Shown here: in pieces, positions 1-60,462 of the stretch
How positions within the stretch are numbered: the stretch's first letter is position 1
Layout: the number at the start of each line of letters is the position of its first letter
Source of the DNA: a virus
Taxonomy: Duplodnaviria > Heunggongvirae > Uroviricota > Caudoviricetes
IMG/VR virus record: IMGVR_UViG_3300044623_001231
Length of the DNA: 64,000 bases
Reading direction: 5' to 3' (one strand)
Position numbers and translations under genes: made by a program
The notes under the pieces: generated by a model
The model's input: only the letters and a program-made list of their open reading frames with translations
Told to the model about the DNA's origin: nothing
The model's database searches: none

Positions 1-990
1 TTTTGGTGGAGTTCAAGCCCATTTTTGCATGCCGGGGTTCATTTTCGTCTATGGTCAAACGAAATCCAAATCGCTCCCAACGGGATATTAATTTTCAGCA
101 GTATCAGAATAGGTTCTCTCCCACCCACCAGCCCTTAAAGATACGAAGAATTTCTCACATTTCCAAATAAAGTTATCAACAGCCAATTGTGGATAAATAA
201 AGTTATCAACACTCATAAGCCATTGAGGATGAGCCCGTTATGAAATTCTTTGTTCATAACTTTATTTTGCTATGTGAAATATTTTTTGTATCTTTGTACC
301 CTTTTAGCCCCGTTTTTAGCTATCGCCAGGGTTTGTCACCATTGGCTTGGGATTCCGTAATGGGATTGGGATGGGATTGCTCGGAGAAGTGTGGTAAAAC
401 CATAGGGAGAAAAGCTAGGAGCTAAACACATCCCCCCTTAAGCTTCTCAACCCGGTTGATAGGTTGCTTTTCCACATCCTCTTTTCAACAATGTGGTAAG
501 TGGTGGGAATTTGTGGGAGAAAGTGGTAAGGATTCATTGACATTAGGTGTTAATACCTCTTTATATCAAAATCAAGGAGCCCCTTTGGGTGGGGCTTTCG
601 GTGTAGTTAAATTTTCGGGGGTATCACAATAGCGATTTGAGAGTGGTGTAGCTTGAGTGTGTAAGGGTTTCGTTAGCCCTCTATCTCTTCTACTAGTATT
701 TCCTTTATCTTATCTATCTTCTCTCTTACTTCTTCCATTTCTTCTTTTCCTTCTACTATCTCTTCTATTTCCATTAGGGTGAATAGTATCTTTAATAAGA
801 CCTTTTGGTTTTGATTTGTTTTCATCTGAGTGGGGTGTTAGTGAGTTAGTACTTCCCTTATATATAGGGAGTTCTTTTGATTTTTGTTTATTCTCTATAC
901 GTTATGTATCTATACTACTACTATTACTATTCTTAGCTGATTTATTTTTATCATTGGTTTCACAGCTCCAGTTTGGATTGGACATTAAAA

Positions 991-4772: not shown

Positions 4773-4814
4773 AACTTATTTTATTTATACAAATATACGA
4801 AAAATTATCGATAT
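4773..4814 (-). promoter_or_regulatory. Bacteroidetes-type -7 element (TATATTTG) with a leader of about 12 nt; short-leader promoter class
   Basis: motif ataacttattttatttatacaaatatacgaa recurs at 29265, 29916 and 32794. Confidence 0.55.
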
Positions 4815-6527
4815 CTACAAGCTTTTCGATAAAATTTCTTCAACAATTTGAATATCTTCGGGATAATCAACTGCATGGGATTGGTTATCTAACATAACCA
4901 TTTTAATTTTATGCCCCATCTCTAAAAATCTAATGATTTCAATATCCTCATCATATTCTAATGGAGTTTTTTTACCAAAACTACTAAATTCTTTAAGGTG
5001 CTCTCTATTAAATGCGTATATACATACCTGCTTTTTGGGATGGTTACCATTACCTGTTTTGGTTCCGGGTATTGGATTCCTAGACATATAGATTAACTCA
5101 TCATTTAAATTGGTAATTACTTTTGGTATTTTCTTATCCTCTACATTTTCATGTTTGTTTAAATAAGACATACAATTTACAATATGGTTTGGATATTTCA
5201 ACTTAGCTTGAATTACCTTATCAATATCAGTTGGGTCCAATAATGGTTCATCACCTTGGATATTTATAATAATATCAGCATCAATTTCCATTGTTGCTTC
5301 AGCAACTCTATCAGTTCCAGTTAAACAAGAATCTGAAGTTAATATTACATTATATCCATAGCTGTTAACTAAATCTACAATTTCTTCATTTTCAGTTGCT
5401 ATATACACATTTTCAATTCCAACTGAATTCTTAGCTATTTCAGCAACCCAAATAATCATTTCTTTATTTTGGATTTTTGCTAATGGTTTTCCTGGGAATC
5501 TTGAAGATTTGTATCTTGCTGGAATAACAACTGCTATTTTTGGTTTTAATGTTTTTTCAATCTTTGAATAATCGTAAGTTTCTGAATTTTCAATATCCAA
5601 TAAAATATTCTCTATTCTATTTGGATTTAAAAATGAAGATTGTAATGTTTGTGGATATAATGGATGAATGTGCTTCATTCCACTTATCATATAATTGTGA
5701 GTAAATCCCCAATTGTGAGTTATATGTAATGGAATCATCCAATCCGTTAAAACTTTATGAAGTGGTGATGAATTATATAATTTGAATTTGTATTGCAAAT
5801 ATGTAACTAATTGTTCGGTCTTTACGTTTCCAACACCCCTACCCATTCCTAATAATGTACCATCCAACCACACTACACCTTCCTCTAAAGCAGATATACA
5901 ATTAGCGAATGCTAATCCAATGTTATCATGTGTATGAATACCAATATCACATCCAAATTCTTTAAAAATTTTAACAATTTCTTTTACTTTACTTGGTTCA
6001 ACATTACCATATGAATCAGCAAAATATAATGCTATTGGATTAACATTTACTAATTTACTAAAATCTCGCATTTCATCATCCGATAACATAGAAATACTCA
6101 TCAAATTTATCATCAAATCATATCCTTTATTTTTTATATGATTTGCAATTCCAATTGAGTGGGTTATTTCAGAATGTTTTATTGCCAATCTACAAATTGA
6201 AAATGGTGAATCGGATTTTTGATGAATAATATTATCAATCAATGCAAAATCAATAGAATCTCCTTTAATAAAATCTTTAGCATCAATCATAAATGCTAAT
6301 TTAGAATTTAGTGGTAATCTATATTCTAATATTTCCCAAATAAATCTATCATTACATTTTCTAAATTGCCCACCTTTTAGTGGTGATTTATAACCAATCT
6401 CAATAACATCCACACCAGACGTATCCAATGAAAATACTAAATCTTTAACCATTTTTGGTTCAAAATTCCAATTGGTATAGTATCCACCATCTCTTAAAGT
6501 ACAATCTAAAATTTTAACCTTTTTCAT
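4815..6527 (-). CDS. bifunctional DRE-TIM (HMGL-like) aldolase / CMP-Kdo-type cytidylyltransferase
   Basis: N-terminal KILDCTLRDGG and GIHTHDN (His-x-His); C-terminal IAVVIPARYKSSRFPGKPL (KdsB/NeuA signature). Confidence 0.7.
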   Translation of the reverse strand: MKKVKILDCTLRDGGYYTNWNFEPKMVKDLVFSLDTSGVDVIEIGYKSPLKGGQFRKCNDRFIWEILEYRLPLNSKLAFMIDAKDFIKGDSIDFALIDNIIHQKSDSPFSICRLAIKHSEITHSIGIANHIKNKGYDLMINLMSISMLSDDEMRDFSKLVNVNPIALYFADSYGNVEPSKVKEIVKIFKEFGCDIGIHTHDNIGLAFANCISALEEGVVWLDGTLLGMGRGVGNVKTEQLVTYLQYKFKLYNSSPLHKVLTDWMIPLHITHNWGFTHNYMISGMKHIHPLYPQTLQSSFLNPNRIENILLDIENSETYDYSKIEKTLKPKIAVVIPARYKSSRFPGKPLAKIQNKEMIIWVAEIAKNSVGIENVYIATENEEIVDLVNSYGYNVILTSDSCLTGTDRVAEATMEIDADIIINIQGDEPLLDPTDIDKVIQAKLKYPNHIVNCMSYLNKHENVEDKKIPKVITNLNDELIYMSRNPIPGTKTGNGNHPKKQVCIYAFNREHLKEFSSFGKKTPLEYDEDIEIIRFLEMGHKIKMVMLDNQSHAVDYPEDIQIVEEILSKSL

Positions 6528-10008: not shown

Positions 10009-10100
10009 ATTTTAGGGTTTTAATTAATTACTCTCTTAATTACTTGTCTAATATACAACAAATATTCGATATAAACAAGCTTTTTTGTCATTATTTTGTA
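10009..10100 (-). promoter_or_regulatory. full promoter-leader cassette (TTG...TAnnTTTG plus conserved 5'UTR ...TAAGAGATAATTAAACCCTAAAA)
   Basis: one of at least 11 near-identical roughly 90-110-bp cassettes. Confidence 0.6.
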
Positions 10101-10465
10101 ATTAAACTCACTTTAATATCTTCAAGTAAGTCCAATTGGTTACGAAATACATCCTTTTCGAATGCCTCTCTATCAATATCCATAGATTCCTGTACCCTAT
10201 TTATTAGAATAGTACTAAAATTGGATGAAATTGAACGTTCAAATGAGAATTTGTGGTTAGTAATAGCTATGTAAAAATCATTAATAACTATATAGTATTC
10301 CATTCGTCTATTACTAACATAGTACTTACCAACGGTAGGTGCCATCATAAAATCGGTATCTTCTTGCTCACACATTAGGTTTACAATATCCGAAAGTAAT
10401 TGTTCGGTTTCACCTAATTTATAAGGTGGTTTAATAATATTTTTTATTTTGGTTATAATATTCAT
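10091..10465 (-). CDS. hypothetical protein
   Basis: ORF track. Confidence 0.5.
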   Translation of the reverse strand: MNIITKIKNIIKPPYKLGETEQLLSDIVNLMCEQEDTDFMMAPTVGKYYVSNRRMEYYIVINDFYIAITNHKFSFERSISSNFSTILINRVQESMDIDREAFEKDVFRNQLDLLEDIKVSLITK

Positions 10466-10477
10466 AGGGATTTTGGT

Positions 10478-10735
10478 TTAAATGTAACAATTTACATTGG
10501 TTAATGCTAATAATTTAATGACTCTAAGGTTATCCATATCAGCCCTACTAACTGCCTCAACCAATTTGTTATCACAAACTGCTTCAACAAATCCTCCACC
10601 ACTCATAACACCATCTCTATGCATCATAATGGAAACCATTATATCCACATTGTGGTTTGAAACCTCAACTTGCCAGTCTTTAGCGAACTGAATAGCTGCA
10701 TTTTTGTACTTTTCTCTTAATTCTAAATAATCCAT
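10478..10735 (-). CDS. hypothetical protein
   Basis: ORF track; cassette upstream. Confidence 0.5.
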   Translation of the reverse strand: MDYLELREKYKNAAIQFAKDWQVEVSNHNVDIMVSIMMHRDGVMSGGGFVEAVCDNKLVEAVSRADMDNLRVIKLLALTNVNCYI

Positions 10736-10821
10736 TTTTTTACGTTTTAGGGGTTTAATTATTAATTCTCAATCTTTATATTCAAATATACGAAATCTTC
10801 CTGATATAACCAAGCTTTTGG
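10736..10821 (-). promoter_or_regulatory. full promoter-leader cassette
   Basis: ttttaggggtttaatt ... caaatatacgaa ... gatataaccaagctttt. Confidence 0.6.
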
Positions 10822-11613
10822 TTAATTATTTTCATACACACTAAATGGTGAATTCATTGGGATAATGAACTTATTGTTGGAAGTGTCAATTTTGTTTCTA
10901 ACTTTTTTGAATTTCAATCCAACTATAACGTTTTGCTCATCCAAATATCTCATATCATATGCATCACCATCAATTACATCATATCCACTCCATTTAGTTG
11001 GTAATTGTTTACCTTCAAATACCATAGCTACCCTACCTTTACCTTCCCTTAGTAGATTTACACAATCAATCATATTATACCCTGAAAATGAGTAGGTTAA
11101 ATCGTAATTAGAGTACTTTTCTAGCAATCTAAATCGTTTTGATACCTTTGTGTAATCATAGAAAGAAACATCAGGAAACCACTCCAAAATGTTCTTATTA
11201 TCCAATTTAAAGGTAGTTGGGTCTAAATCTGAGGTTCCATTCAATCTAACTGAGAATCGTAATCCACTACGTTCAGCTTTCTCTTTTTCTTTACCAATTT
11301 CATAGATTAACCAACCCATAAAAAATTCCCTGTCCTCAAAGAATAGTTTTGTTTTTTTGATGCGGGCCTGATTAATTTGGTTCTTATGGATATCGATTTT
11401 ATTCCTACCAGACTCATTCAAACAAGCAGCGGTACATTCATCCGTTCTCATTGGACAAACCTCATATCCACTTGACTTAGCGGGTGCTAAGTATATAATG
11501 TAGGTTGATTCATTATACTTTAATCCTTTAGCCATCTTAGAAGATGAATTAACACTACCAAGATAACTTAATCCGGTTAGTTTCTTTGCTTGAGATAAAT
11601 TTTGAAATTTCAT
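10822..11613 (-). CDS. hypothetical protein (263 aa)
   Basis: ORF track. Confidence 0.55.
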   Translation of the reverse strand: MKFQNLSQAKKLTGLSYLGSVNSSSKMAKGLKYNESTYIIYLAPAKSSGYEVCPMRTDECTAACLNESGRNKIDIHKNQINQARIKKTKLFFEDREFFMGWLIYEIGKEKEKAERSGLRFSVRLNGTSDLDPTTFKLDNKNILEWFPDVSFYDYTKVSKRFRLLEKYSNYDLTYSFSGYNMIDCVNLLREGKGRVAMVFEGKQLPTKWSGYDVIDGDAYDMRYLDEQNVIVGLKFKKVRNKIDTSNNKFIIPMNSPFSVYENN

Positions 11614-11641
11614 TTACTATTAATTTTAGGGGTTTAATTGA

Positions 11642-11857
11642 TTATCTATATAATGTTACAATACTACCGAAGTAACTATCAAATACCTCAAGTAGGTTTT
11701 CATAATCACCACTCCTCATTTCAGAACAAATTTCTTCAGAATTCATTCCTAATTGTTTTGCCAGATTTGATGCGGTTCCCAATAAGTAAAAAGCGTTACC
11801 CTGTGGACCGGTTAAATCAATTGTAATTCCTGTTTGTTTTGGTTTTTCTAAAATCAT
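11642..11857 (-). CDS. hypothetical protein
   Basis: ORF track. Confidence 0.4.
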   Translation of the reverse strand: MILEKPKQTGITIDLTGPQGNAFYLLGTASNLAKQLGMNSEEICSEMRSGDYENLLEVFDSYFGSIVTLYR

Positions 11858-11877
11858 AACTTTATTTTTTTTAATTA

Positions 11878-12222
11878 TTAAATACCTTGCTCTCTGCGTA
11901 AATCATACTCTTCCTTTTCAGCTTCCGAATACTCAACAACCTTTAAGTAAGGTTGAAAATCAGTTTCGTAATAACCTCGAAATCCAGCGAAGAATAACAT
12001 CTCATCGATGAACAATTTTCGAACGTAAGTCATATCGGATGAACCAAATCCCTGGTCTTCCGGCCAATCGGAATATTCATTGGCAACTATCTCCAATGAA
12101 TTAAAAACAGCATCAGCATAAGTGAATCCGTTTTTAGAAGGGAATCCTTTTCTGATAACATCGTAACCTTCTACTAATGAAGAGGTTTCGTGAACAAAAG
12201 CTAAATTAAATGGTAAACTCAT
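11878..12222 (-). CDS. hypothetical protein
   Basis: ORF track; cassette upstream. Confidence 0.5.
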   Translation of the reverse strand: MSLPFNLAFVHETSSLVEGYDVIRKGFPSKNGFTYADAVFNSLEIVANEYSDWPEDQGFGSSDMTYVRKLFIDEMLFFAGFRGYYETDFQPYLKVVEYSEAEKEEYDLRREQGI

Positions 12223-12335
12223 ATTTTTAGGGTTTTAAGGTTTTAAGTATCTCTCAATCTTTATACTCAAATATAGGAAATTAATTTGGATTGCACAAGC
12301 CTTTTGCCAATTATTTTCAAAAAAAGTTATTAACA
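12223..12335 (-). promoter_or_regulatory. full promoter-leader cassette
   Basis: includes the upstream element CAAGCCTTTTGCCAATTATTTTCAAAAAAAGTTATTAACA. Confidence 0.6.
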
Positions 12336-14337: not shown

Positions 14338-14482
14338 ACTTTAAAATTTACCCCATTGGGATTTATGTCTATTTTCTTCAGCTATCTTAAAACCCAACCA
14401 AATATCCTTAAAGAATGATTTGATATTATTAATTATTTTGTTCATATTACAAATATACTAATTATTTTTTAATTATCCAAAT

Positions 14483-14827
14483 TTATTTCCAAAATATCTG
14501 TATTCCTATTAATATTGCTGCTAAAATCAATGATATACCTGTTTTTGCATTAATACCCTCATTCATAAATATAAATGTGAGAATAGCAAACGTAATCATC
14601 CCACCAGCTTGCCCTATAAATCTTCCCGGCCATAATTGCCCATCAAAGTGTTCAGCAACCAAAGAAGTTCCTTTAATAAAAATGTAAGATATTAAGGTCC
14701 CACCCATTAGAGATATTAAGAATGGATTACGTTTGAACCAAGGCCAAACGAATTGCCCATTGGTTTGTATCCAAATTATACATTGGGCTATTGTAAATAA
14801 TATAACTCCCCAAATTAGGTTTTTCAT
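14483..14827 (-). CDS. membrane protein (4 TM)
   Basis: ORF track, hydrophobic. Confidence 0.5.
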   Translation of the reverse strand: MKNLIWGVILFTIAQCIIWIQTNGQFVWPWFKRNPFLISLMGGTLISYIFIKGTSLVAEHFDGQLWPGRFIGQAGGMITFAILTFIFMNEGINAKTGISLILAAILIGIQIFWK

Positions 14828-19474: not shown

Positions 19475-19553
19475 ATCTCTTAATCTTATACTCAAATGTA
19501 GTAAAAATTATTGACATATACAAGCTTTTTGCCGATTATTTTCAAAAAAGTTA
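19475..19553 (-). promoter_or_regulatory. promoter-leader cassette (leader truncated before the AAACCCCTAAAA block)
   Basis: atctcttaatcttatactcaaatgtag...caagctttttgccgattattttcaaaaaagttactaac. Confidence 0.5.
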
Positions 19554-19970
19554 CTAACTTCTATACCTTAAATCATTTTGCCTGTAAACACTTAATACTG
19601 AACCCTGTCCATGTGTTATTGCGAACTGATAACCATAATAATCATAGATAGTTGATGGGAAATTCTCAGTTAAACTATCTATTGGTTCAATTTCAGTTCC
19701 ATAATTTTGAGCCAATTCCCACATCAAATCCATAATATGTAATGGTTTATCTGAATATGTATTATAATGCCTTTCATCGTACTTACTTTGTTTCTCTAAA
19801 ACATCCAGCATTAAGTAATCAAATGTAGAATCATCACAAACACCATATCTTTGTAATAGTTTATTTGCTCTTTCCAATTGGATTCTATCCTTTAAGGCAA
19901 GTTTAGTAAAATAATCTACCATTGCCTTTTCACCTTCTGGACTTTTCATATATACCAATACGTCTTTCAT
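19554..19970 (-). CDS. hypothetical protein
   Basis: ORF track. Confidence 0.5.
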   Translation of the reverse strand: MKDVLVYMKSPEGEKAMVDYFTKLALKDRIQLERANKLLQRYGVCDDSTFDYLMLDVLEKQSKYDERHYNTYSDKPLHIMDLMWELAQNYGTEIEPIDSLTENFPSTIYDYYGYQFAITHGQGSVLSVYRQNDLRYRS

Positions 19971-20592: not shown

Positions 20593-20943
20593 CTAAATTA
20601 AATGTAATAATATATAAGAAAGTTTATATCCAGCAAACGCACCTAATGCAGATGGAATTGGGAATACAATAAGTTGTCCGAAATCGGTAACATATTTAGG
20701 TCGATTTACAATCTTACCCATAAAAAAGTAATAAACTAAATATCCAATGAATACTGCTATATCAGTTCTAGTTGCGATAAATACAACTAACATTGCTCCT
20801 AAGAATCCAAAGATAAAGTTATCTCTAACACCTTCCCATATTTCTTGTGTGGTGCAATCTTTCCATTCCTTAATAATCTTTTTATACTTACTCATATCAA
20901 TTAATTTTAAGTCAAATATACAAAAAAAAATCGATATCTCCAA
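20593..20943 (-). CDS. membrane protein
   Basis: ORF track. Confidence 0.45.
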   Translation of the reverse strand: MEISIFFCIFDLKLIDMSKYKKIIKEWKDCTTQEIWEGVRDNFIFGFLGAMLVVFIATRTDIAVFIGYLVYYFFMGKIVNRPKYVTDFGQLIVFPIPSALGAFAGYKLSYILLHLI

Positions 20944-20981
20944 AGAAATACCGATTTATTTTTAATTAATTTTAACCAGTT

Positions 20982-22455: not shown

Positions 22456-22541
22456 GCGGAAAGAGTAGGATTCGAACCCACGATACCTTTCAGTATGCCG
22501 GTTTTCAAGACCGGTGCAATCGACCAACTCTGCCATCTTTC
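22456..22541 (-). tRNA. tRNA-Ser(TGA), class II
   Basis: hand-folded: anticodon stem CCGGT/ACCGG, loop CTTGAAA, long variable arm, T-loop GGTTCGAATCC. Confidence 0.8.
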
Positions 22542-22548
22542 CTCTTTT

Positions 22549-22620
22549 GTAGTCCCACCGGGAATCGAACCCGACTTTTCAGGATGAAAACCTGATGACC
22601 TAACCGATAGTCGATAGGAC
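22549..22620 (-). tRNA. tRNA-Glu(TTC)
   Basis: anticodon stem TCAGG/CCTGA, loop TTTTCAT; acceptor with 2 GU pairs. Confidence 0.75.
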
Positions 22621-22760
22621 CATATAAATGTGAGCCAAACTTATGTACTTAGTGGGTGTACTCCGTTTATACTACTCTCACATTCAAATCAGTAGTGTGA
22701 TGTTAATGGTTGAAAGATATTTACCTTCCTTTCGGCCTACCATCGTGGCCCATGCGTTTG

Positions 22761-22836
22761 TGGAGCGAATAGCAGGAATCGAACCTGCATCTCCAACTTG
22801 GAAGGATGGAGTAATAAGCCATTATACGATATTCGC
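22761..22836 (-). tRNA. tRNA-Gly(TCC), CCA encoded
   Basis: acceptor GCGAATA/TATTCGC, loop CTTCCAA. Confidence 0.75.
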
Positions 22837-23791: not shown

Positions 23792-23864
23792 TTGCGGGAG
23801 AGGGAATCGAACCCCCGACCTCAAGGTTATGAGCCTTGCGAGCTACCGCTGCTACTATCCCGCT
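23792..23864 (-). tRNA. tRNA-Met(CAT), initiator-like
   Basis: loop CTCATAA; 3' end CCCGCAAC with a 1:72 mismatch and A73, as in bacterial tRNA-fMet. Confidence 0.7.
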
Positions 23865-23966
23865 ATATATGTTTAAGAACTTAATTTTCAACTTCTATGT
23901 ATATAAGTATATACAAATATACCAAAACGTAAAAAAAATCGAAAAATAATTTAATTTTTTTATTGT

Positions 23967-24040: not shown

Positions 24041-24174
24041 AAACGAGAGAGGGTTCGGGTCTTTCAAGGTTTCTGATTAAGTGCAATGAGTGACGTCTTT
24101 CTACTATAAACCTTTTTTCGAAAATTAATACACTCTACCTCTTAATTACAGCTTCACTCCCTCTCTATTTTTTA

Positions 24175-25843: not shown

Positions 25844-25929
25844 TACCGATGGGCGGACTCGAACCGCCACGAGCATTACTACCCAAGGGATTTTAAGTCC
25901 CTCGTGTCTACCATTTCACCACATCGGCA
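25844..25929 (-). tRNA. tRNA-Leu(TAA), class II
   Basis: anticodon stem AGGGA/TCCCT, loop CTTAAAA, long variable arm. Confidence 0.8.
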
Positions 25930-26045
25930 TTTTAGATTTTCAACATGTCAAAGAACAAAACTGTCTCTCTTTTACTATGTAAAGATACAACATAATTTTG
26001 AATTATACAAGCTTTTTTAAAAACTTTTATAATTTTTGTGGAGGT

Positions 26046-29264: not shown

Positions 29265-29315
29265 AACTTATTTTATTTATACAAATATACGAATAATATT
29301 TGAATTAAACAAGCT

Positions 29316-29915
29316 TTATTTAATATTAATATTCCAACTGATTGAAATACGTGGTACTTCGGTTGAAGTGTACTCTAAAGTCCCATGCATTAACCACGAT
29401 GGGAAAGATATAAGTAAACCTTCTTTTGGTTGGATATGTAATTGAGGTGCCAACTCCTGATTTGTATTATTTGGTAATAACTTAACCAATGTGTTTATCG
29501 GTGAATCTATAACAAACTCACCACCTTTATCATTTTCCAAATCAACATACAATACGGCTGAGAACCCATTCGATGGTTGCCCAGCTCCCAAATGGTCATG
29601 CATCTCTTGATAACATCCCTTAGTTCCAATCGTCATCCAACAATCATCTACTGAAAATTTGGTTGTAGTAAATTCACCATCTACTAAATACTGAGATGTG
29701 TGATGTAATATCAAATCCTGCAAATAATCAGGGTAGAACTTCCGTTCAACTTCACAAAATATGTTTGTTCTCGTATTACACTTCCATTGGTTTGTATTAA
29801 ACAAATCATCATTTTCCTTTATGTACTTATACACATCTGCTTTCAATCGATGATGTAATTCCGCATCAATTCTGTCAAAGTATATTGGTGTTGGGAATAG
29901 GTTTTGTATTGGCAT
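29316..29915 (-). CDS. putative 2OG-Fe(II)-oxygenase-superfamily / cupin hydroxylase
   Basis: HDHLG ... WLMHGT His-x-Asp ... His arrangement (weak). Confidence 0.4.
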   Translation of the reverse strand: MPIQNLFPTPIYFDRIDAELHHRLKADVYKYIKENDDLFNTNQWKCNTRTNIFCEVERKFYPDYLQDLILHHTSQYLVDGEFTTTKFSVDDCWMTIGTKGCYQEMHDHLGAGQPSNGFSAVLYVDLENDKGGEFVIDSPINTLVKLLPNNTNQELAPQLHIQPKEGLLISFPSWLMHGTLEYTSTEVPRISISWNINIK

Positions 29916-29971
29916 AACTTATTTTATTTATACAAATATACAAAAATTAATTCACATATCCAAATAAAAAA

Positions 29972-29994
29972 CCCAACTTTTTTTAGGAGTTGGG
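29972..29994 (-). terminator. intrinsic terminator (CCCAACT / AGTTGGG) flanked by A/T runs
   Basis: inverted repeat with T-run. Confidence 0.65.
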
Positions 29995-32793: not shown

Positions 32794-32844
32794 AATTTTA
32801 TTTTTATTTATACAAATATACGAAATTAATTCGATATATCCTAA

Positions 32845-33234
32845 TTATTTATATTTTAATTTAACTCTATCTGAAATAGGAATGGGTTCGTTGCTTTCAT
32901 CAATCCTTACAAATTTAATGTTAGTTGATAGGATTATGGTTTGCTGACCCGAATATACATTATGTGCTCTAGCTTCTAACATTAGAGTTAAAGAAGTATT
33001 CCCTATCTCCTTTACTCTTCCATATATTTTTAGAAGTTGCCCTTCTTTAGCGGGTCTTTTAAATAAACACTCATCAATTTTTACAGTCACTATTCTGGGT
33101 GTATCACATACTTCCATTGCCATAGCGGCACCAGCAGCATCAATCCATGCTAAAAGTTTGCCACCAAATAGATTTGCATGAAACCCCAAATCAGCTTTCT
33201 TAATTGGATGGGTTGATATTAGTTGCATTTCCAT
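32845..33234 (-). CDS. hotdog-fold acyl-CoA thioesterase (YciA/4HBT-like)
   Basis: HANLFGGKLLAWIDAAG motif. Confidence 0.65.
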   Translation of the reverse strand: MEMQLISTHPIKKADLGFHANLFGGKLLAWIDAAGAAMAMEVCDTPRIVTVKIDECLFKRPAKEGQLLKIYGRVKEIGNTSLTLMLEARAHNVYSGQQTIILSTNIKFVRIDESNEPIPISDRVKLKYK

Positions 33235-34006: not shown

Positions 34007-34289
34007 CTTGCGCCATTATGAATCCAATACTATCTAACTCCTCTTTAACTTTCTTAACTCCACCACCAATCATCAACTCAGCTCCGATAGCATCAATGGT
34101 TAATTGAGCCTTCATAGCGTTAATGAACTTTTTACCTTTAACACCTAATCGAACTGGTGCTTTTTCAATTTCAACTAATGATGGAAACTTCTCATTTCCA
34201 GCAGGAACTATTACACAATTCTTATAACGAACAGTTGATTCTAATGGTTCCGTACTTAATGTGATTACTTTACTTTTCATATTTTTCAA
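33993..34289 (-). CDS. hypothetical protein
   Basis: ORF track; full cassette upstream. Confidence 0.5.
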   Translation of the reverse strand: MKNMKSKVITLSTEPLESTVRYKNCVIVPAGNEKFPSLVEIEKAPVRLGVKGKKFINAMKAQLTIDAIGAELMIGGGVKKVKEELDSIGFIMAQDAAF

Positions 34290-34391
34290 TTTTAGGGGTT
34301 TAATTATCTCTTAATCTTATAACCAAATATAAGTAAAATAATTGAGACCTACAAGCCTTTTTTCAATTATTTTCAAAAAAGTTATCAACAT
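34290..34391 (-). promoter_or_regulatory. full promoter-leader cassette
   Basis: CTTG-N20-TATATTTG, leader GTTATAAGATTAAGAGATAATTAAACCCCTAAAA. Confidence 0.6.
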
Positions 34392-35210: not shown

Positions 35211-35262
35211 ATCTCTTAATTATATGTCTAATATACGAATAATATTTGGTATTTCCAAATTT

Positions 35263-35763
35263 TTAACAACAAATTAAGTGATTTTTAACCCTTTTTTTCT
35301 GAATTTTACCCATAAGAATCTGATATTCTTTGGTTTCCATCACATAGTTTAAATCTATCGTTGTAGCGTAATAGGAATCGCTTCCTGATGATTTCCAATC
35401 GGATTCCATTAGATAGGTGTGTATAAAGAACCACTTAAGGTCAGCCCCAGAATCATCGTAGGATACCAATAGGTAGTCCGATTCCCTCTTAGAAAACTCA
35501 CCACCCCTCCAAATATGGGTAGTTTTAGCGGTTTTAATCTCCAATGCGGTACCTTTCACATAAAGGTCAGGTTCACCATCGGAAAATGGGGATATTACCT
35601 CAGGAACCACCTTAGAAAATGATGCTTCTAACATATTGGATATCAGTTCCGATTTCAACTTAGTAGATAGGGAACCATAATCCACAACAGATTTGAAAAT
35701 TTTGAATCTGTTATTAGCTTCCTCAACAACCTGTGGTAAATAACTTAAAATATACTCTCTCAT
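35263..35763 (-). CDS. hypothetical protein
   Basis: ORF track. Confidence 0.5.
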   Translation of the reverse strand: MREYILSYLPQVVEEANNRFKIFKSVVDYGSLSTKLKSELISNMLEASFSKVVPEVISPFSDGEPDLYVKGTALEIKTAKTTHIWRGGEFSKRESDYLLVSYDDSGADLKWFFIHTYLMESDWKSSGSDSYYATTIDLNYVMETKEYQILMGKIQKKRVKNHLICC

Positions 35764-36470: not shown

Positions 36471-36553
36471 TTTATTAGTTTTAGGGGTTTAATTATCTCT
36501 TATTACTCTGTAAACATACGAATAATTCCTGATATAAACAAGACATTTCGTAA
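36471..36553 (-). promoter_or_regulatory. full promoter-leader cassette
   Basis: variant -7 TATGTTTA. Confidence 0.55.
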
Positions 36554-36925
36554 TTATTTTTTAACAAATGAACGTTCACAACTACCTGTTTTACAAATAA
36601 ACCAATTCCAATTTTCATTAGATACGAACCTATCCCAATTTGAACCTTTAACAAAATGACCTACACTTTTATCATAGGTACATACATCAATCTCTTTTAA
36701 ACATCTACGGATTGATGAATAATATCCGCTACTCTTATATCCTAACATATCCTCAATAACATCCACCCACTTTGGTTTTGGATTATTATTAATTACTTTG
36801 ATAAGGGATGGATATACCCTAATTAAGAACTTTTTGTTCTCTGAATCATAGCCAACTTTTTTCTCAAATACTTCGTTAAATTTCTCTTTGTTCATAATTT
36901 TTAATTTTAGGGGTTTAATTATCAT
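36554..36925 (-). CDS. Cys-rich hypothetical protein
   Basis: ORF track. Confidence 0.5.
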   Translation of the reverse strand: MIIKPLKLKIMNKEKFNEVFEKKVGYDSENKKFLIRVYPSLIKVINNNPKPKWVDVIEDMLGYKSSGYYSSIRRCLKEIDVCTYDKSVGHFVKGSNWDRFVSNENWNWFICKTGSCERSFVKK

Positions 36926-37015
36926 CTCTTATTACTATGTAAACCTACGAATAATTCCTGATATAAACAAGCCTTTTGCCAATTATTTTTCAACTTTTTT
37001 ATAACGTGTTGATAA
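36926..37015 (-). promoter_or_regulatory. full promoter-leader cassette
   Basis: near-duplicate of the 36471-36553 cassette. Confidence 0.55.
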
Positions 37016-45718: not shown

Positions 45719-45760
45719 ATATTTTAGAGTTTTAAGTTATTAATAATCAAATATACGAAA

Positions 45761-46309
45761 TTAATTTGGAATATCCAAATATTTTAGTATGTTTTTTAAA
45801 GTATCATCGTTAACATCTACATAAATAAATGGAATATGGTGTTTAATTAGGGTATTTTCTATCTCCAAATCCAGCATTTTGGATTCATTCAATGATTGGT
45901 ACCTTTCCTTTTCATTATACCCACCCTCAGAACGTTTTAGAACGATATTAAGCGTATCATATTGATTATGAATGTCTAACACCATTTTATCAAATGAATC
46001 ACCATACAGCGTTGCTGGGTACTCAGTACCTTTATATACTGATTTATATACCAATGATAATACAATTGGTGAATCCAATATAATATAGTCAACCTTCCCA
46101 TAACTCTTAACAATTCCCCTATGTTGGTTTGCAAGTACATACAATTGGTCTTTGATAGCAGAATGATTCTCATCCCATGCCAATACTTTTGGAAACTCAT
46201 ATGGATTATCACAACTTATGTGTTTCTTTTTTAACTTATATGTAAGACCATTGGCAATGGATGATTTCCCAATACCAGGTCCTCCAAATAGATTTACTAT
46301 TTTACTCAT
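45761..46309 (-). CDS. P-loop (d)NMP-kinase-like protein
   Basis: Walker A FGGPGIGKSS. Confidence 0.55.
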   Translation of the reverse strand: MSKIVNLFGGPGIGKSSIANGLTYKLKKKHISCDNPYEFPKVLAWDENHSAIKDQLYVLANQHRGIVKSYGKVDYIILDSPIVLSLVYKSVYKGTEYPATLYGDSFDKMVLDIHNQYDTLNIVLKRSEGGYNEKERYQSLNESKMLDLEIENTLIKHHIPFIYVDVNDDTLKNILKYLDIPN

Positions 46310-47161: not shown

Positions 47162-48517
47162 TTAATTGTCTAAATAAATCCAATCGGAATGTTTATCCGA
47201 TTTTAGTTTCTGTCTTACTCTTTCAGATGAGATACCAAAATGGTTACCAGCATCTTCCATTGAATAGAATTCAATTCCATCACAACTTATAACTGGTATT
47301 TCTAATCTAATATTATTATCCCACATATCCATCATTTCACCATAGGTAATATCATTACTATCCACCCGTTTCCAATGTCTATATTTGGGATTGTTTGATT
47401 CAATATAATTTCTAGCAATTTGTTCGGTGAAATCTCCACCAATTAAATCTGCTATTTGTTTTGGGTTCTCAAACGGAACTCCATCTACTTCGTATTTTAT
47501 ATGTGGGTTGGTTTCTTCACCAATGATTTGCCACTCTTTGTAAGATGATTTAGTACTTCTACATCTTCTCTCTACTTCAGATGCAACTAACTTATCTGCA
47601 TCCACATCAATTGCCGCATGTCTAAATGATAGGTATTCCTTCCCATCTACTTTACACATAGGTTCACCACCTTCAATCTCAATAGTTGCGATATCAGGGT
47701 TTCCTTTTACAAAAATTAGAATGTTTTGATGAACTGATGGTATTTTACGATTTCTATCAAAGTAAGTTTTACCAACTCGTGAAGCTTGGTGTTGAGAATT
47801 GAATAGAATCATATCATTATAGAATTCCATTCCAGCTGATTCCAACATATCTATGGTTTTACGAACCAAACCTCTATATCTACCTTTAGAATACTTACCA
47901 GTTACGGATGGTTCTCTAACTTCAGATACTACAATCCCAAAGAATCGGTTATCTTTTAGTTTTTGAACTGATTTTAGGAGTATTGATTCATATACTTTAT
48001 CAAATGAATCCACATCCATATTGGAAATATCATTCACATCATCAGTATAAATCTCCAAATCGTAGTAAGGTGGGCATGTAAATACAAAATCAAATGATTC
48101 ATCGGCTACCTTGTCCAATTCCTCATTCGAATCACCATTAATCCATAAGGGTTTTTTTGATTGCTCTTTGTTGGCTTTTACTTGTGATTTGGATAAATCA
48201 ATTCCAACGTATCTTCGGTTCATCTCTTCACATACGATACCTCTCACACTACCACCAGCGAATGGGTCTAATACCATTCCACCTTTGGGTGAGAACCAAT
48301 CGTACATCAATTCACAAAGTACTGGGTCAAATACGGAAACTGAATTGGGTGTATCCCAAAAGATAGTTTTGGATTGAGTATCCTCTCTACCTAATTCAGA
48401 TTGGATACCATAATTAGTAATCCAATATTCCTTTCTTTGCTTCCATTCCTTTGTTCTAGTATCTAATACTGAAAAGGGTGTAAACATATAACATATTTTA
48501 TAAACACAAAGATACAA
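47162..48517 (-). CDS. DNA methyltransferase (N6_N4_Mtase family) with a C-terminal extension
   Basis: DPFAGGSVRG (motif I) and FTCPPYYD (motif IV, (D/N/S)PPY-like). Confidence 0.65.
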   Translation of the reverse strand: MYLCVYKICYMFTPFSVLDTRTKEWKQRKEYWITNYGIQSELGREDTQSKTIFWDTPNSVSVFDPVLCELMYDWFSPKGGMVLDPFAGGSVRGIVCEEMNRRYVGIDLSKSQVKANKEQSKKPLWINGDSNEELDKVADESFDFVFTCPPYYDLEIYTDDVNDISNMDVDSFDKVYESILLKSVQKLKDNRFFGIVVSEVREPSVTGKYSKGRYRGLVRKTIDMLESAGMEFYNDMILFNSQHQASRVGKTYFDRNRKIPSVHQNILIFVKGNPDIATIEIEGGEPMCKVDGKEYLSFRHAAIDVDADKLVASEVERRCRSTKSSYKEWQIIGEETNPHIKYEVDGVPFENPKQIADLIGGDFTEQIARNYIESNNPKYRHWKRVDSNDITYGEMMDMWDNNIRLEIPVISCDGIEFYSMEDAGNHFGISSERVRQKLKSDKHSDWIYLDN

Positions 48518-48569
48518 AAAAAGCTTGGTATATCCAAGCTTTTCTTTAATTATTTTTTATTAGGTGATA

Positions 48570-53467: not shown

Positions 53468-53743
53468 CTAATAAGATAATTTAACCCCTACAATGCATTC
53501 TACCAATCCTTCGTACTTTGAATCAATTGGTGTGATTGATGTTATAATCCATTTTGATTTTTGAAAATTAAGTACTCCTCCTACCGATAATACCGGTCCA
53601 CCTTCAAAGTCAAACATTACCGTTTCACCGGAATCATTTGTTGATGTTCTTTGAAATTGAGATTCCCCAGTAATCCTAAGTCTATTGGTATCTAATTTTT
53701 CGATAACTCTCTCTAATCCGTATCTGCTTTTAATCATTTCCAT
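53468..53743 (-). CDS. hypothetical protein
   Basis: ORF track. Confidence 0.45.
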   Translation of the reverse strand: MEMIKSRYGLERVIEKLDTNRLRITGESQFQRTSTNDSGETVMFDFEGGPVLSVGGVLNFQKSKWIITSITPIDSKYEGLVECIVGVKLSY

Positions 53744-54696: not shown

Positions 54697-54728
54697 ATTT
54701 CAAATATACAAAAAATAATTCAAATAAC

Positions 54729-54869
54729 CTAATTTCTTTCCAAAATCTTTTTTAATTGTGATTCTTTCAATAGTTTCTTTGGTTCTTGTTTTTTGGATTT
54801 GTCCTCTTCCAATGGAATTCGATAGTTCTTTACTAACTTTTCCATCCAATCTTTGGTGTCTTTACTCAT
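54729..54869 (-). CDS. small basic protein (about 46 aa)
   Basis: read from the DNA: M(SM)SKDTKDWMEKLVKNYRIPLEEDKSKKQEPKK... Confidence 0.3.
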   Translation of the reverse strand: MSKDTKDWMEKLVKNYRIPLEEDKSKKQEPKKLLKESQLKKILERN

Positions 54870-56360: not shown

Positions 56361-57569
56361 TTAGAACATTGGGATTTCATCTACTAACTCTTCTTTTTGT
56401 TCGGTAAAAAGAGCTTCTGCTGATGTATCTTTAACATATTTTTGAACCAGTTGTTTCACATAAGTTCTTTCAGAATCTACACCACCATCATTAGAGAAGA
56501 ATGGGAAGATTGAAATTTCAGCTGATTCGAATAAATCGAATCCATCATAAATTAATCCAGCCATTTCAACACTAGCTCTCGTCGATACCATAGCGGTAAC
56601 TTTACCAGAATCACTCATCGATTGAGTTCGAGTGTGGTGAGCGATTTCAGCGATTGCTTTCAAATCATAATCATTAACCTCAGGGAACATAAACTTTAAC
56701 AATCCAAATTCCTGCTCATCATTTAGAACATCCATTTCGATAGTTACGAAACGGTCTAAGATAGCCCTATCGATTACCCTAGTCGAAGTATATTCAGAAC
56801 CTATGTTAGCGGTAGCGATAAAGGTAACACCTTCAGCCACTTTAACAATTGGTGAACCTTCAGCCTCATCCAAACGTAAGTAACGTTGTCCACCATCTAA
56901 AACGGTCATCAAAATGTTCCAAGCATCAGGGTGAGCTCTACTCAACTCATCTAATAGAATCACAGCGTTTGGAGTTTTAATTGCTTTAACGAATGCCGAT
57001 TCAGCGAAGAAAGTTCCTTTGTTTTTATCAAAGTGAGTATTACCAATCAAAGTAGCACGAGGGTCTTGCGTTGCTCCTAAGTTGAAGTAGAAATCAGGTC
57101 GGTCAAGTGCTTTAACCAATGCTTTAGCTGCCATTGTTTTACCACAACCAGCAGGTCCAGTCATCATAATGTTTTTAGCTCTAACAGCTGAACGAACTAA
57201 GTATTTCCACTTTAGAGGTGTCATCACCAATTCAATTGGTTTCAAATCAATTGAACTATTGTGAATGAAATCTTTGATTGCGTTATGGTCACCTTTATCT
57301 TCAAATTGAACACCACCATTATCGGTATTCATTGGGGAAACTAAGTTATTATAAACTTCCATTCCCACTTTTCGGAAAACCTTCTTACCATTCTTTTGAA
57401 CGAATGCCTGAAGAGCCAATCCCTGCTCAAATGCATCTTTACGAGTACCGGTTCCGATACCCATTGTACCAACTTTTTGACCTTTAGTGTCAATTAACTT
57501 AAATGAGTTACCAAAAGCTTCTACTTTGTAAACCTCATTTCCTACGAATCCAATTTTTAAATCTTTCAT
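56361..57569 (-). CDS. MoxR/CobS-like AAA+ ATPase
   Basis: Walker A MTGPAGCGKT; Walker B VILLDE; pairs with the downstream VWA protein. Confidence 0.7.
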   Translation of the reverse strand: MKDLKIGFVGNEVYKVEAFGNSFKLIDTKGQKVGTMGIGTGTRKDAFEQGLALQAFVQKNGKKVFRKVGMEVYNNLVSPMNTDNGGVQFEDKGDHNAIKDFIHNSSIDLKPIELVMTPLKWKYLVRSAVRAKNIMMTGPAGCGKTMAAKALVKALDRPDFYFNLGATQDPRATLIGNTHFDKNKGTFFAESAFVKAIKTPNAVILLDELSRAHPDAWNILMTVLDGGQRYLRLDEAEGSPIVKVAEGVTFIATANIGSEYTSTRVIDRAILDRFVTIEMDVLNDEQEFGLLKFMFPEVNDYDLKAIAEIAHHTRTQSMSDSGKVTAMVSTRASVEMAGLIYDGFDLFESAEISIFPFFSNDGGVDSERTYVKQLVQKYVKDTSAEALFTEQKEELVDEIPMF

Positions 57570-57674
57570 TTTTATTTATTTTAGGGTTTTAATTAATTAC
57601 TCTCTCAATTACCTGTCTAATATACGAACAATTTCTGATATAAACAAGCTTTTTGCCAATTATTTTTGCTTTTT
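57570..57674 (-). promoter_or_regulatory. full promoter-leader cassette
   Basis: ttttagggttttaatt ... ctaatatacgaa ... gatataaacaagctttttgccaattattttt. Confidence 0.6.
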
Positions 57675-57899
57675 TTAATAATAAAATCGACTATAATAAC
57701 CTAATGTACCAGTATCCGAATCTGCGTTGTCTATAAACCCAAATCCTTTGTAATTATTGGTATTGAATAGGATTCTTTCAATGGTGGTGGCAATGCCAGC
57801 CTTAAATGCCACTGTAGCGAACTCATCGGTTCGTTTTAGTTGTTCATTAGCCCAATCCAACATAGTACTAACTTCAATCGTTTTTTTACTTTTAGCCAT
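57675..57899 (-). CDS. hypothetical protein
   Basis: ORF track between two cassettes. Confidence 0.5.
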   Translation of the reverse strand: MAKSKKTIEVSTMLDWANEQLKRTDEFATVAFKAGIATTIERILFNTNNYKGFGFIDNADSDTGTLGYYSRFYY

Positions 57900-58021
57900 A
57901 ATTTAGGGGTTTTTTAAGTGATTTAATCTATCTATCAATCTTATACTCAAATATACAAAAAAGACTTGAGATAAACAAGCCTTTTTCTAATTATTTTCAA
58001 TAAAGTTATTAACAATTTGAA
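57900..58021 (-). promoter_or_regulatory. full promoter-leader cassette
   Basis: includes the upstream element ...aattattttcaataaagttattaaca. Confidence 0.6.
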
Positions 58022-60139: not shown

Positions 60140-60223
60140 ATTTTTAGGGTTTTAATTAATTTATCTCTTAATCTTATACTCAAATATACGACAAATACCT
60201 GAGATATCCAAATAAAATTGAAG
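60140..60223 (-). promoter_or_regulatory. promoter-leader cassette
   Basis: ttttagggttttaattaatttatctcttaatcttatactcaaatatacgac. Confidence 0.55.
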
Positions 60224-60364
60224 TTATTTTTGATAAAATTTATCAATCTCTAATTTGGCTTGTTTTAGTGTCTTTTTAGCTTTGGTTTTTTTACCACTAA
60301 AAAGTAGTTCCATCGACTCGATTAACAATCGTCTGTGGGTTGGAAGGGTGTTTTTTGGTTTCAT
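60224..60364 (-). CDS. small basic protein (46 aa)
   Basis: read from the DNA: MKPKNTLPTHRRLLIESMELLFSGKKTKAKKTLKQAKLEIDKFYQK; flanked by cassettes. Confidence 0.4.
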   Translation of the reverse strand: MKPKNTLPTHRRLLIESMELLFSGKKTKAKKTLKQAKLEIDKFYQK

Positions 60365-60445
60365 ATATTAGGGGTTTGATTAATTACTCTCTCAATTACC
60401 TGTCTAATATACGAATAATATTTGATATAAACAAGGGTTTTCTTA
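60365..60445 (-). promoter_or_regulatory. full promoter-leader cassette
   Basis: near-identical to the 57570-57674 cassette. Confidence 0.6.
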
Positions 60446-60462
60446 AAAATCTTACGATTTTC

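Follow-up and report, generated by a model that had tools for sequence, protein, structure and literature searches.

Genomic context and copies of the cassette

The window, a stretch of 64,000 nt from the IMG/VR virus record IMGVR_UViG_3300044623_001231 (Caudoviricetes), carries a repeated promoter-leader cassette, here called class I, in which a -33/-7 promoter is followed by a conserved leader and a start codon. Every gene of the window is on the minus strand, and the GC content is about 31-34%. Its auxiliary and nucleotide-metabolism genes include a VWA/CobT-like gene, a MoxR/CobS-like AAA gene, a DNA ligase and an RNA ligase, and further genes encode thymidylate synthase, GroEL, an IMP dehydrogenase (IMPDH)/GMP reductase, a methyltransferase and a NUDIX protein. 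Heme oxygenase, bilin reductase and a CpeT-family protein represent bilin-related functions. Small ORFans are numerous, and a 6-kb block of RNA genes holds 25 tRNAs, a transfer-messenger RNA (tmRNA) and a GOLLD RNA. The cassettes lie between the stop codon of one gene and the start codon of the next, with an AT-rich upstream region.

A preliminary description had reported at least eleven copies of a highly conserved cassette of about 100 bp, listed at 10009, 10736, 12223, 19475, 34290, 36471, 36926, 57570, 57900, 60140 and 60365. All eleven were found, on the minus strand, and a twelfth copy at 35211-35278 had been missed. The cassette is real, but the high conservation was overstated, as ungapped identity reaches only 60-88% over 74-105 nt. 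A profile built from 10 copies recovered those 10 at E-values of 1e-20 to 1e-14, partly by construction; it also recovered the copy at 19475, which had been excluded from the model, at 1e-10, and gave 53 matches in relatives. With at most one mismatch, TCGTATATTTG matches 25 times against 2.3 expected, on the minus strand in 24 of the 25 cases, while the 23-mer of the upstream block was found seven times (0.02 expected), the 21-mer of the leader six times (0 expected) and the class II 23-mer (see below) four times (0.01 expected). An assembly artefact such as repeat collapse is excluded: the copies have diverged, the genes next to each are unique, and dozens of metagenome assemblies made independently show this architecture too.

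We curated 29 promoters, namely 12 of class I, 4 of class II, 7 other mRNA promoters and 6 RNA-gene promoters, and compared the class I start contexts with those of 96 other genes of the window. The class I copies are as follows; open reading frames (ORFs) are given where they help to place a copy.

60365..60454, minus strand: class I, type Ib, TATATTAG-ACAG-GTAATTGAGAGAG...CAAACCCCTAATAT-ATG; predicted +1 at about 60399; 46-aa ORF 60224..60364.
60140..60231, minus strand: class I, type Ia, TATATTTG-AGTA-TAAGATTAAGAGATAA...TTAAAACCCTAAAAAT-ATG; predicted +1 at about 60176; 705-aa VWA/CobT-like gene; orthologous cassette in relatives.
57900..58014, minus strand: class I, type Ia, with a TGTTAATAAC box at 58005-58014; a hairpin and T-run lie within the promoter (57987-57957).
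57570..57667, minus strand: class I, type Ib; predicted +1 at about 57612; drives the MoxR/CobS-like AAA gene 56361..57569.
36896..36990, minus strand: class I, type Ic, TAGGTTTA-CATA-GTAATAAGAGATGATAATTAAACCCCTAAAATTAAAAATT-ATG; likely start 36895; terminator-like hairpin immediately upstream.
36471..36561, minus strand: class I, type Ic; shares 88% identity over 74 nt with the copy at 36896; drives three genes, one of them of 102 aa (phrog_5014).
35211..35278, minus strand: class I-short, TATATTAG-ACAT-ATAATTAAGAGAT-ATG; ATG right after the initial transcribed block, without the C-rich block.
34281..34390, minus strand: class I, type Ia, with a TGTTGATAAC box at 34381-34390; start at ATG 34280 or TTG 34289.
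19475..19559, minus strand: class I-short, type Ia, with a GTTAGTAAC box and the leader TAAGATTAAGAGAT-ATG; heads an operon ending in the RNA ligase gene.
12223..12335, minus strand: class I, type Ia, with a TGTTAATAAC box at 12326-12335; leader with three tandem TAAAAC(C) units.
10736..10833, minus strand: class I, type Ia; predicted leader of 43 nt.
10009..10098, minus strand: class I, type Ib; predicted leader of 35 nt.

The copy at 57900..58014 drives a 74-aa ORFan (57675..57899) that is missing from all relatives, and a terminator-like hairpin at 12376-12350 precedes the copy at 12223..12335. In the short copies at 19475 and 35211 the ATG comes directly after AAGAGAT, the C-rich part being missing. 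At 36926 the cassette was placed correctly but its start codon was not: ATG 36925 falls within the leader, and the likely start is 36895.

Core promoter and upstream tracts

TTG followed, after a spacer of exactly 20 nt, by TAnnTT(T/A)(G/A) occurs at about 25 intergenic sites, and after ORF filtering TTG-N20--7 sites number 24 on the gene strand versus 3 on the opposite strand. The 29 curated promoters align to one common consensus from -55 to -5, aAAAAtAatT..aAAAAa.cTTGgatAT.TCAAatATTtTTcGTATATTTG, common to the tRNA/tmRNA promoters and to those of classes I and II. Its promoter half being generic, class I is defined by the leader alone. Within the -7 element T1, A2, T5 and T6 are invariant, T7 and G8 are usual and positions 3-4 are free, with variation at 3-4 and 7-8 only. 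The -7 element of Flavobacterium johnsoniae reads T-12 A-11 T-8 T-7 T-6 G-5, its start site lies 4-5 nt downstream and its spacer carries AT-rich motifs (PMC6847099). The invariant positions and the AT-rich spacer motifs of the window agree with that element, and together with the 20-nt spacing they bear out the Bacteroidota -33/-7 type assigned in the preliminary description. We placed the predicted +1 by the 4-5 nt distance measured in F. johnsoniae. Sigma-70-type sites resembling TTGACA-N16-18-TATAAT are not enriched in the window (99 versus 111 expected, and 55 versus 76 expected), and sigma-70 promoters were rejected for this reason.

Just upstream of -33, in all promoter classes, stand two A/T blocks (aAAAAtAatT..aAAAAa) in the layout of a UP element, whose two A/T-rich subsites lie between about -38 and -59. 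This layout was judged against the E. coli UP-element consensus. As a sequence pattern the upstream block behaves like a UP element, one of the roles that had been suggested for it.

Initial transcribed block

A conserved 5' untranslated region of 35 nt had been described. A conserved leader is indeed present, but its predicted length is 35-44 nt and it consists of two modules. The predicted +1 is the G of GTAATTGAGAGAG in types Ib and Ic, or the TA of TAAGATTAAGAGAT in type Ia, and the block that starts there reads GUAAUUGAGAGAG or UAAGAUUAAGAGAU. It is purine-rich and almost free of C: positions +1 to +20 are 69% purine with 2 C per 240 nt, and 0 of 20000 random sets were so poor in C. Relatives share with the window a conserved GTAA that begins exactly 4 nt past the -7 element. 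Because the tRNA-Leu promoter 25987 bears the same block (GTAAAAGAGAGA), we regard the block as a feature of transcription or of the RNA 5' end and not as a translation signal. Purine-rich initial transcribed sequences (ITSs) are known to favour promoter escape by the E. coli polymerase (PMC12464699), and by analogy the block probably helps a tightly bound polymerase to escape.

Start-codon block

In the second module 2-4 UAAA(A)C(C) units follow one another in tandem, and the module ends in UAAAA 1-6 nt upstream of the AUG. Some relatives carry a stable 5' hairpin (-7 to -12.5 kcal/mol) that separates the two modules, yet the second module still lies beside the ATG; once it stands directly after a stop codon with no promoter. 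A single inverted copy also exists.

11614..11640, minus strand: promoterless 3' half of the leader, GATAATCAATTAAACCCCTAAAATTAATAGTAA-ATG; the 71-aa gene upstream has its stop codon fused to it, and the 263-aa gene 10822..11613 follows.
53473..53493, plus strand: inverted single copy of the leader 3' block, 18/21 bases, inside the 3' end of gene 53468..53743.

An anti-leader RNA was considered for 53473-53493, where 0 copies are expected by chance, and was dropped: the copy lies in a coding 3' end, is not conserved in 14 orthologs and is taken for a relic or chance.

Class I leaders of the window are essentially unstructured, with minimum free energies of 0 to -4.2 kcal/mol and mostly positive z-scores, and the Rfam search gave no family match overlapping any cassette. 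TAAAA lies 2-12 nt upstream of the start in 9/10 class I leaders. The same element at the same distance is reported as the Flavobacterium ribosome-binding site (Chen 2007 as cited in PMC2483708). Among the other genes (n=96), 51% have TAAAA within -30 to -1 versus 13% of background 30-mers. Their start contexts are A-rich, free of Shine-Dalgarno (SD) motifs and depleted of C. An SD-like 4-mer occurs in 3/96 of these genes and in no class I leader, in line with the earlier remark that SD motifs are not used. CCC is present within -25 to -1 of 10/10 class I starts versus 7/96 other genes; since the other start contexts are C-depleted, C-runs are peculiar to class I, and the C-run as a general ribosome-binding site was rejected. 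In more distant relatives the start-codon block takes the forms (ATAAACA)x4, AAACCCCTTTAT, AACCCCTATAT and TTCCTCCTAT.

An unstructured, reiterated TAAAA-type block that tracks the start codon fits the RNA-level expression element that the preliminary description had proposed. On this sequence evidence we prefer to read the block as a reiterated site, not of the SD type, at which the ribosome would bind for the first cistron; it may instead be a recognition signal specific to the regulon.

In the AAA-gene leaders of the relatives L001 (12450), L003 (12135), L004 (12347) and L016/L008 (12114) a GC hairpin with GGGG/CCCC or GGGAG/CTCCC is inserted. In the close relatives it has -9 to -9.6 kcal/mol and lies between the transcribed-start and UAAAC blocks; the phage of the window has none. 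This hairpin may be an mRNA-stabilising 5' stem-loop.

An optional box upstream of the promoter

The TTGATAAC element, which had been described as a part of each cassette, is optional and separate. TGTTRATAAC occurs in only 4/12 class I copies, all four of type Ia, whose -7 elements begin at 12275, 19500, 34331 and 57955, and it is found twice more upstream of promoter 143.

172..211, minus strand: two TGTTGATAAC boxes (172-181 and 202-211) around a perfect TTATCCACA at 188-196, upstream of promoter 143 and between divergent promoters.

The window and 76 related loci together hold 125 unique forward sites of the form TGT[GT][GA]ATAA, 36 of them upstream of a promoter. These 36 boxes lie 15, 25-26, 36-37 or 47 nt from the TTG, with one outlier at 45, and are thereby phased at 10.5 bp; in reverse orientation boxes are rare near promoters and unphased. 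Taken together, phasing and orientation speak for protein binding, most probably by an activator. The DnaA-box consensus is TTATNCACA. In distant relatives the box reads TGTGGATAA or TGTGAATAA, the complement of this consensus, and 31/36 promoter-associated boxes in the clade match it perfectly. From these sequences the box is most likely an activator site with DnaA-box character. DnaA itself may be the binder, with TGTTGATAAC and TGTGGATAAC as candidate sequences; we treat this as a lead and not as a finding.

The left end of the window also carries an inverted repeat (137-188/244-295, 79% complementary) that forms a divergent promoter pair flanking the DnaA-box-like cluster, at 137-295. Neither the adjacent GC-richer stretch of about 400 nt (300-700) nor the transcript that would run from promoter 143 out of the window has a convincing ORF or an Rfam match. 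This region could be a regulatory hub, an origin or a site of non-coding RNAs.

Class II and other promoters

The second promoter class was confirmed at 4773, 29265, 29916 and 32794, where the core promoter is followed by TATA-AATAAAATAAGTT-ATG. The label near-leaderless does not hold, as the predicted leader is 13-15 nt long; this leader is the generic A-rich start context of the phage. The supposed degenerate class II sites at 39277, 45719 and 54697 are of other types, with a leader of its own, a short class I-like leader and leaderless spacing, respectively.

4773..4840, minus strand: class II, TATATTTG-TATA-AATAAAATAAGTT-ATG; predicted 13-nt leader; hairpin around the -33 element.
29265..29332, minus strand: class II; predicted 13-nt leader.
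29916..29983, minus strand: class II; the -33 element overlaps an intrinsic terminator-like hairpin.
32794..32863, minus strand: class II variant; predicted 15-nt leader; -33 reads TAG, not TTG.
54697..54751, minus strand: leaderless-spaced promoter, 4 nt from TATATTTG to ATG; the spacing predicts a leaderless mRNA.
14446..14500, minus strand: second leaderless-spaced promoter, 4 nt from TATATTTG to ATG; the spacing predicts a leaderless mRNA.
45719..45798, minus strand: promoter with a short class I-like leader, TTAAAACTCTAAAATAT-ATG.
48488..48557, minus strand: terminator inside a promoter; the stem AAAAGCTTGG/CCAAGCTTTT holds the -33 TTG and the T-run abuts -7; precedes the methyltransferase gene.
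25929..26030, minus strand: tRNA-Leu promoter (25987), common core with the class I-like block GTAAAAGAGAGA, then boxA-like TTGTTCTTTGACA.

The stem at 48488..48557 is kept by compensatory changes at the orthologous sites of L001 and L004. The gene behind it (47162-48487, minus strand) encodes a DNA methyltransferase with a C-terminal I-TevI-type DNA-binding domain, an unusual fusion. The T4-type late promoter motif TATAAATA is not enriched upstream of genes (17 versus 16.5 expected); class II as a T4-like late promoter was rejected, and TATAAATA belongs there to the class-specific sequence. Across the clade, among 235 non-identical promoter-leader units, non-canonical -7 ends (TTAG, TTTA) accompany the GTAA-type start and canonical TTTG the TATA-type start; C-runs are found in 32/97 GTAA-type units versus 0/23 of the TATA type.

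RNA genes have promoters of their own. Several transcription units of the 25 tRNA genes (22456-28616, minus strand) have consensus promoters, at 23733, 23921, 24537, 25987 and 26445, the last of which precedes a tmRNA (26036-26405, minus strand; Rfam 115 bits; ARAGORN tag peptide ending in ADYAVAA) as its -33/-7 promoter. A full-length GOLLD RNA (22843-23254, minus strand; Rfam RF02032, 257 bits with a gathering score of 150) lies within the tRNA cluster. The leaders of the tRNA/tmRNA promoters 25987, 26445 and 23733 contain boxA-like GTTCTTTGA, which suggests antitermination of the rrn type; a boxA-like motif of the GCTCTTTAACAA or GTTCTTTGA type was sought in class I leaders and is missing there.

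Conservation among relatives

A megablast of 25 kb against cultured phages matched tRNAs only, revealing no close cultured phage, and the exact 19-mer of the leader had no match in IMG/VR. Therefore no near-identical genome was available for comparison. Homologs of the 705-aa VWA gene define 76 IMG/VR loci, many on contigs of 230-290 kb, the closest at 72% protein identity. The VWA and AAA genes are neighbours in all relatives. A search of relatives for the cassette, as the preliminary description had advised, showed the same architecture upstream of orthologous genes on these 230-290 kb contigs. A class I-type leader precedes the AAA gene in 12/12 orthologs examined, and the promoter class is conserved per gene across relatives, which indirectly favours the idea that the classes are functional ones.

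The junction between the VWA and AAA genes is variable. Three unrelated ORFs occupy it, namely the 74-aa ORFan in the window, one of 74 aa in L001 and one of 46 aa in L004, and a cassette of its own accompanies each; L003, L007, L013 and L016 have a single cassette. The 71-aa gene that adjoins the VWA gene in L008 and L016 is found 48 kb away in the window, fused to the leader fragment. In several promoters the -33 TTG is part of the stem of an embedded terminator hairpin, and compensatory changes between genomes preserve that stem. Stem-loops in or just before some copies lie at 48546-48516, 20957-20928, 57987-57957 and 12376-12350, and further hairpins at 29940 and 36926. Strong concerted evolution of the copies was rejected, the excess of identity within genomes being weak (see below).

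Timing and host

The phage Mel-JY01 (PP395634.1; L078, L079), the nearest cultured relative, has a complete genome with the same -33/-7 promoters, a GAGAG-rich transcribed start and C/A-repeat leaders. Strict TTG-N20-TAnnTTTG sites number 0 in its 50-kb structural module versus 14 in 37 kb of non-structural genes. Ribosomal protein bS21 is encoded in the structural module of phages described previously, where it was proposed to favour phage mRNAs (PMC9723584). The bS21 gene of Mel-JY01 likewise lies in the structural module, beside that for the prohead protease, an arrangement it shares with the Bacteroidetes-assigned bS21 jumbo phages. The 49 bS21 loci (184 kb) gave one match to a relaxed promoter pattern. 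Because the promoter family is absent from the structural module of Mel-JY01 and nearly absent from the bS21 loci, it is plausibly an early or middle class used by the host polymerase. The S21 loci in IMG/VR lie on contigs other than those of the relatives of this window. Upstream of the phage bS21 genes in L083-L131 we noted SD-like AAGGAA/AAAGGAAA, which echoes the SD-containing rpsU leaders of Flavobacteriales.

In GC content, size and tRNA load the phage agrees with freshwater bS21-encoding jumbo phages assigned to Bacteroidetes. Relatives were also sought in GTDB genomes for host identification, and none was found. The Bacteroidetes host named in the preliminary description is supported by the promoter grammar, the lack of SD motifs and the likeness to bS21 phages, but is opposed by a relative deposited as a Microcystis phage and by the bilin genes. 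On balance, these signals make a Bacteroidota host most likely. The bilin-related genes are overlapping heme oxygenase and ferredoxin-dependent bilin reductase genes and a CpeT/CpcT-family protein (39638-40779 and 60669-61355, both minus strand).

Discussion

The architecture of the cassettes, its statistics, its conservation and the pattern of insertions and deletions around it are observed. We consider it probable that each class I copy is a complete expression cassette of five modules, by which early/middle genes would be expressed through an unmodified host polymerase of the Bacteroidota type. Phased A/T tracts from about -55 to -36 (AAAATAATT...AAAAAGC) would form the first, UP-like module, and the near-consensus core, CTTG with exactly 20 nt to TAnnTTTG, the second. 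The initial transcribed block at the predicted +1 would serve promoter escape by the tightly bound polymerase, and the reiterated UAAA(A)C(C) units leading to UAAAA would act as a Flavobacterium-type non-SD ribosome site of the first cistron. The fifth module, present in 4/12 copies, is the oriented TGTTRATAAC centred at about -67 on a fixed helix face, a putative activator site. As repeated sequences the cassettes would in addition serve as recombination junctions at which ORFans are gained and lost, in the manner of the promoter early stem-loops (PeSLs) of T4-type phages.

Several points weigh against this interpretation. Start sites, promoter strength, escape, ribosome recruitment, factor binding, timing and host are all inferred from sequence. 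The C-run is contrary to the C-depleted context of the other 96 starts, and class II first cistrons do without it; it may therefore be a signal specific to the regulon and not a general ribosome site. The C-run lies either 6-7 or 13-15 nt from the ATG, a bimodal spacing and a looser one than expected of a fixed contact with the ribosome. The boxes of the window (TTATCAACA or TTATTAACA), TGTT(A/G)ATAA, match TTATNCACA at 8/9 positions, with one mismatch, and in the 22-kb loci of the closest relatives no box was found near promoters. Most class I copies are without the stem-loop that defines PeSLs, and cassette identity is 0.61 within a genome versus 0.54 between genomes, a weak homogenisation. 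Finally, Microcystis is the host under which Mel-JY01 was deposited, and the window has cyanophage-like genes for heme oxygenase, bilin reductase and a CpeT-family protein.

The strongest competing explanation, which we nevertheless judge unlikely, makes the leader, above all its C-containing UAAAC block at the usual SD position, the cis-target of a post-transcriptional system of the phage. This could be a translational repressor or endonuclease by which early mRNAs would be shut off, like RegA or RegB of T4, or a ribosome that a phage protein such as bS21 has altered to select these mRNAs, so that class I would be a translational or temporal regulon. The C-runs of the ten class I starts amid C-depleted others would fit such a target, as would the persistence of the motif (AAACCCCCTAAAAAT, AACCCCTATAT, TTCCTCCTAT) in relatives with 37-50% protein identity, the conservation of the promoter and leader class per gene across the clade and the fact that the UAAAC motif moves with the start codon and not with the promoter. 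A bS21 proposed to favour phage mRNAs is encoded by freshwater jumbo phages that are related (PMC9723584), and Mel-JY01 has a bS21 gene too. However, no regulator was identified in the window, the S21 loci found lie on contigs other than those of this clade, and the published bS21 hypothesis concerns late genes, whereas the cassettes head non-structural genes. Within the genome the motif is degenerate (CCC, CCCC, CCTT, CTCT, TCAC) and its spacing to the ATG variable, while the C-run of relatives shrinks to single Cs in (ATAAACA)x4, which suits a reiterated TAAAA site more than an operator.

A ribosome-centred variant, quite unlikely in our estimate, would treat the UAAAC block as a phage-specific code for ribosome recruitment through the bS21/bS18/bS6 platform region, possibly after replacement of the host bS21 by one that the phage encodes; the phased DnaA-box-like site could in addition couple these promoters to host DnaA. 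The block sits at the usual SD position and reads CCUCC or CCCCU in some relatives. If true, this code would allow selective translation of the regulon in a host whose ribosomes are blind to SD motifs.

We see little chance that the promoters belong to something other than the Bacteroidota host sigma factor, be it a phage sigma or polymerase or the sigma factor of a cyanobacterial host, in which case both the host and the early labels would fail. This idea draws on Mel-JY01, whose same TTG-N20-TAnnTTTG promoters come from a deposited Microcystis phage, on heme oxygenase, ferredoxin-dependent bilin reductase and CpeT-family genes, which are typical of cyanophages, and on TTGnnn-N17-TATATT, which can loosely be read as a sigma-70 layout. 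Microcystis cultures, however, are usually not axenic, and Mel-JY01 has the same bS21-in-structural-module layout as the Bacteroidetes-assigned phages. A -7 element fixed at T1, A2, T5 and T6, mostly kept at T7 and G8 and free at positions 3-4 corresponds to the Bacteroidota pattern and not to TATAAT; SD motifs are not used, and starts are A-rich with TAAAA. GC content, size and tRNA load resemble those of bS21 jumbo phages assigned to Bacteroidetes by CRISPR spacers, and no sigma or polymerase gene was found within the 64-kb window.

Even less credit goes to an action of the transcribed region at the level of DNA or transcription, as an operator for a phage repressor that would stop elongation soon after initiation, or as a loading site (nut/boxA/ops-like) for a processive antiterminator with which early transcripts would pass the many terminators. 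The leader block is conserved from +1 and common to the tRNA promoter, terminator-like hairpins stand before or inside several cassettes, and in some relatives a hairpin beside the motif loosely recalls boxA with boxB. Yet the C-rich block stays near the ATG and not near the promoter, and is once found without a promoter; boxA-like GTTCTTTGA belongs to the tRNA/tmRNA leaders and not to class I; the leader hairpin of relatives is missing from all copies of the window; and no operator-type dyad symmetry was seen in the leader.

The least probable alternative, that only the core promoter is functional and the rest reflects recent duplication or gene conversion of a mobile cassette travelling with ORFans, can point to lineage-specific ORFans bracketed by cassettes, to distant copies of the window that are 76-88% identical over 74-105 nt and to an identity slightly higher within than between genomes, with no signal left by positional orthology, but is opposed by the recurrence of the same modules in the same order and +1 register in phages with proteins 37-50% identical, by the helical phasing and fixed orientation of the box, by the extreme avoidance of C from +1 to +20 and by leader classes conserved per gene, all of which argue for selection and not for drift after copying.

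As expression cassettes of the kind we favour, the class I copies would give a clade-wide picture of early expression signals in large uncultured freshwater phages whose Bacteroidota-type hosts are SD-blind. They could be ready strong parts for the engineering of Flavobacterium and Bacteroides, and natural test sequences for how Bacteroidota ribosomes choose start sites. The principle of a promoter cassette that doubles as a recombination joint would reach past the T4-like phages of Proteobacteria. The phased DnaA-box-like site hints that early promoters of phages may be tied to the initiator of host replication, and the promoter grammar suggests that Mel-JY01, the 'Microcystis phage', may really infect a Bacteroidota bacterium.

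Comparison with known systems

In T4-type phages PeSLs serve as mobile regulatory cassettes (Arbiol et al. 2010, PMC2839356; Comeau et al. 2014, PMC4122927). Like the cassettes described here, they are repeated by the dozen between genes, and each joins a strong promoter of the host type, with AT-rich sequence upstream, to a ribosome site and a start codon. Both are concentrated in plastic regions before ORFans, at junctions of insertion, deletion or replacement between related genomes, and some copies embed a terminator hairpin at the promoter boxes, as at 48488-48557, 20928-20957 and 57957-57987 in the window. The grammar differs, being Bacteroidota -33/-7 and not sigma-70, with a 3' end of UAAA(A)C/TAAAA and not an SD motif; a stem-loop is missing from most class I copies, and the present cassette adds the initial transcribed block and the optional phased box; the comparison draws on the auxiliary region of the genome only.

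The early promoters of T5 (N25/P25-type; 'putative early promoter T5P33', 'repeat c') are also repeated, very strong, read by the host polymerase and conserved into the transcribed region, but they use E. coli sigma-70 boxes and an SD motif. The N25 ITS, ATAAATTTGAGAGAGGAGTT, which we confirmed in the T5 sequence, where it is annotated as a repeated early promoter, resembles class I GTAATTGAGAGAGTAATT in sequence and purine richness; this likeness is most likely convergent.

Promoters of the Bacteroidota sigma-A (sigma-ABfr) share TAnnTTTG at -12 to -5, TTG near -33 and an AT-rich spacer with the cassette (Baez 2019, PMC6847099). Flavobacterium leaders of about 33 nt, with A-rich, SD-free starts and TAAAA 2-12 nt from the start, are similar as well (PMC6847099; Chen 2007 as cited in PMC2483708; GeneMarkS-2, PMC6028130). 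In host promoters, however, -33 is weak, whereas the phage copies are much nearer to the consensus, with phased A-tracts to -55 and reiterated TAAAA with C-runs. The B. fragilis phage promoter P_BfP1E6 with its own ribosome-binding site is another phage-derived unit, which gives very strong constitutive expression in a Bacteroidota host in the summary that PMC11554821 provides (citing Whitaker et al. 2017); it comes from a gut Bacteroides phage and was compared by that description only.

The upstream box is asymmetric and orientation-specific, as DnaA boxes (TTATCCACA/TTATNCACA) are, with the perfect consensus in distant relatives and 8/9 positions in the window, and its steps of about 10.5 bp upstream of the promoter are those of activator sites of the class I type. 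The kind of element is already known, its nearest counterparts being T4-type PeSLs and T5 early promoters, here cast in Bacteroidota grammar; its new details are the block at the transcribed start, the reiterated UAAAC units as a putative ribosome region and the phased site that resembles a DnaA box.

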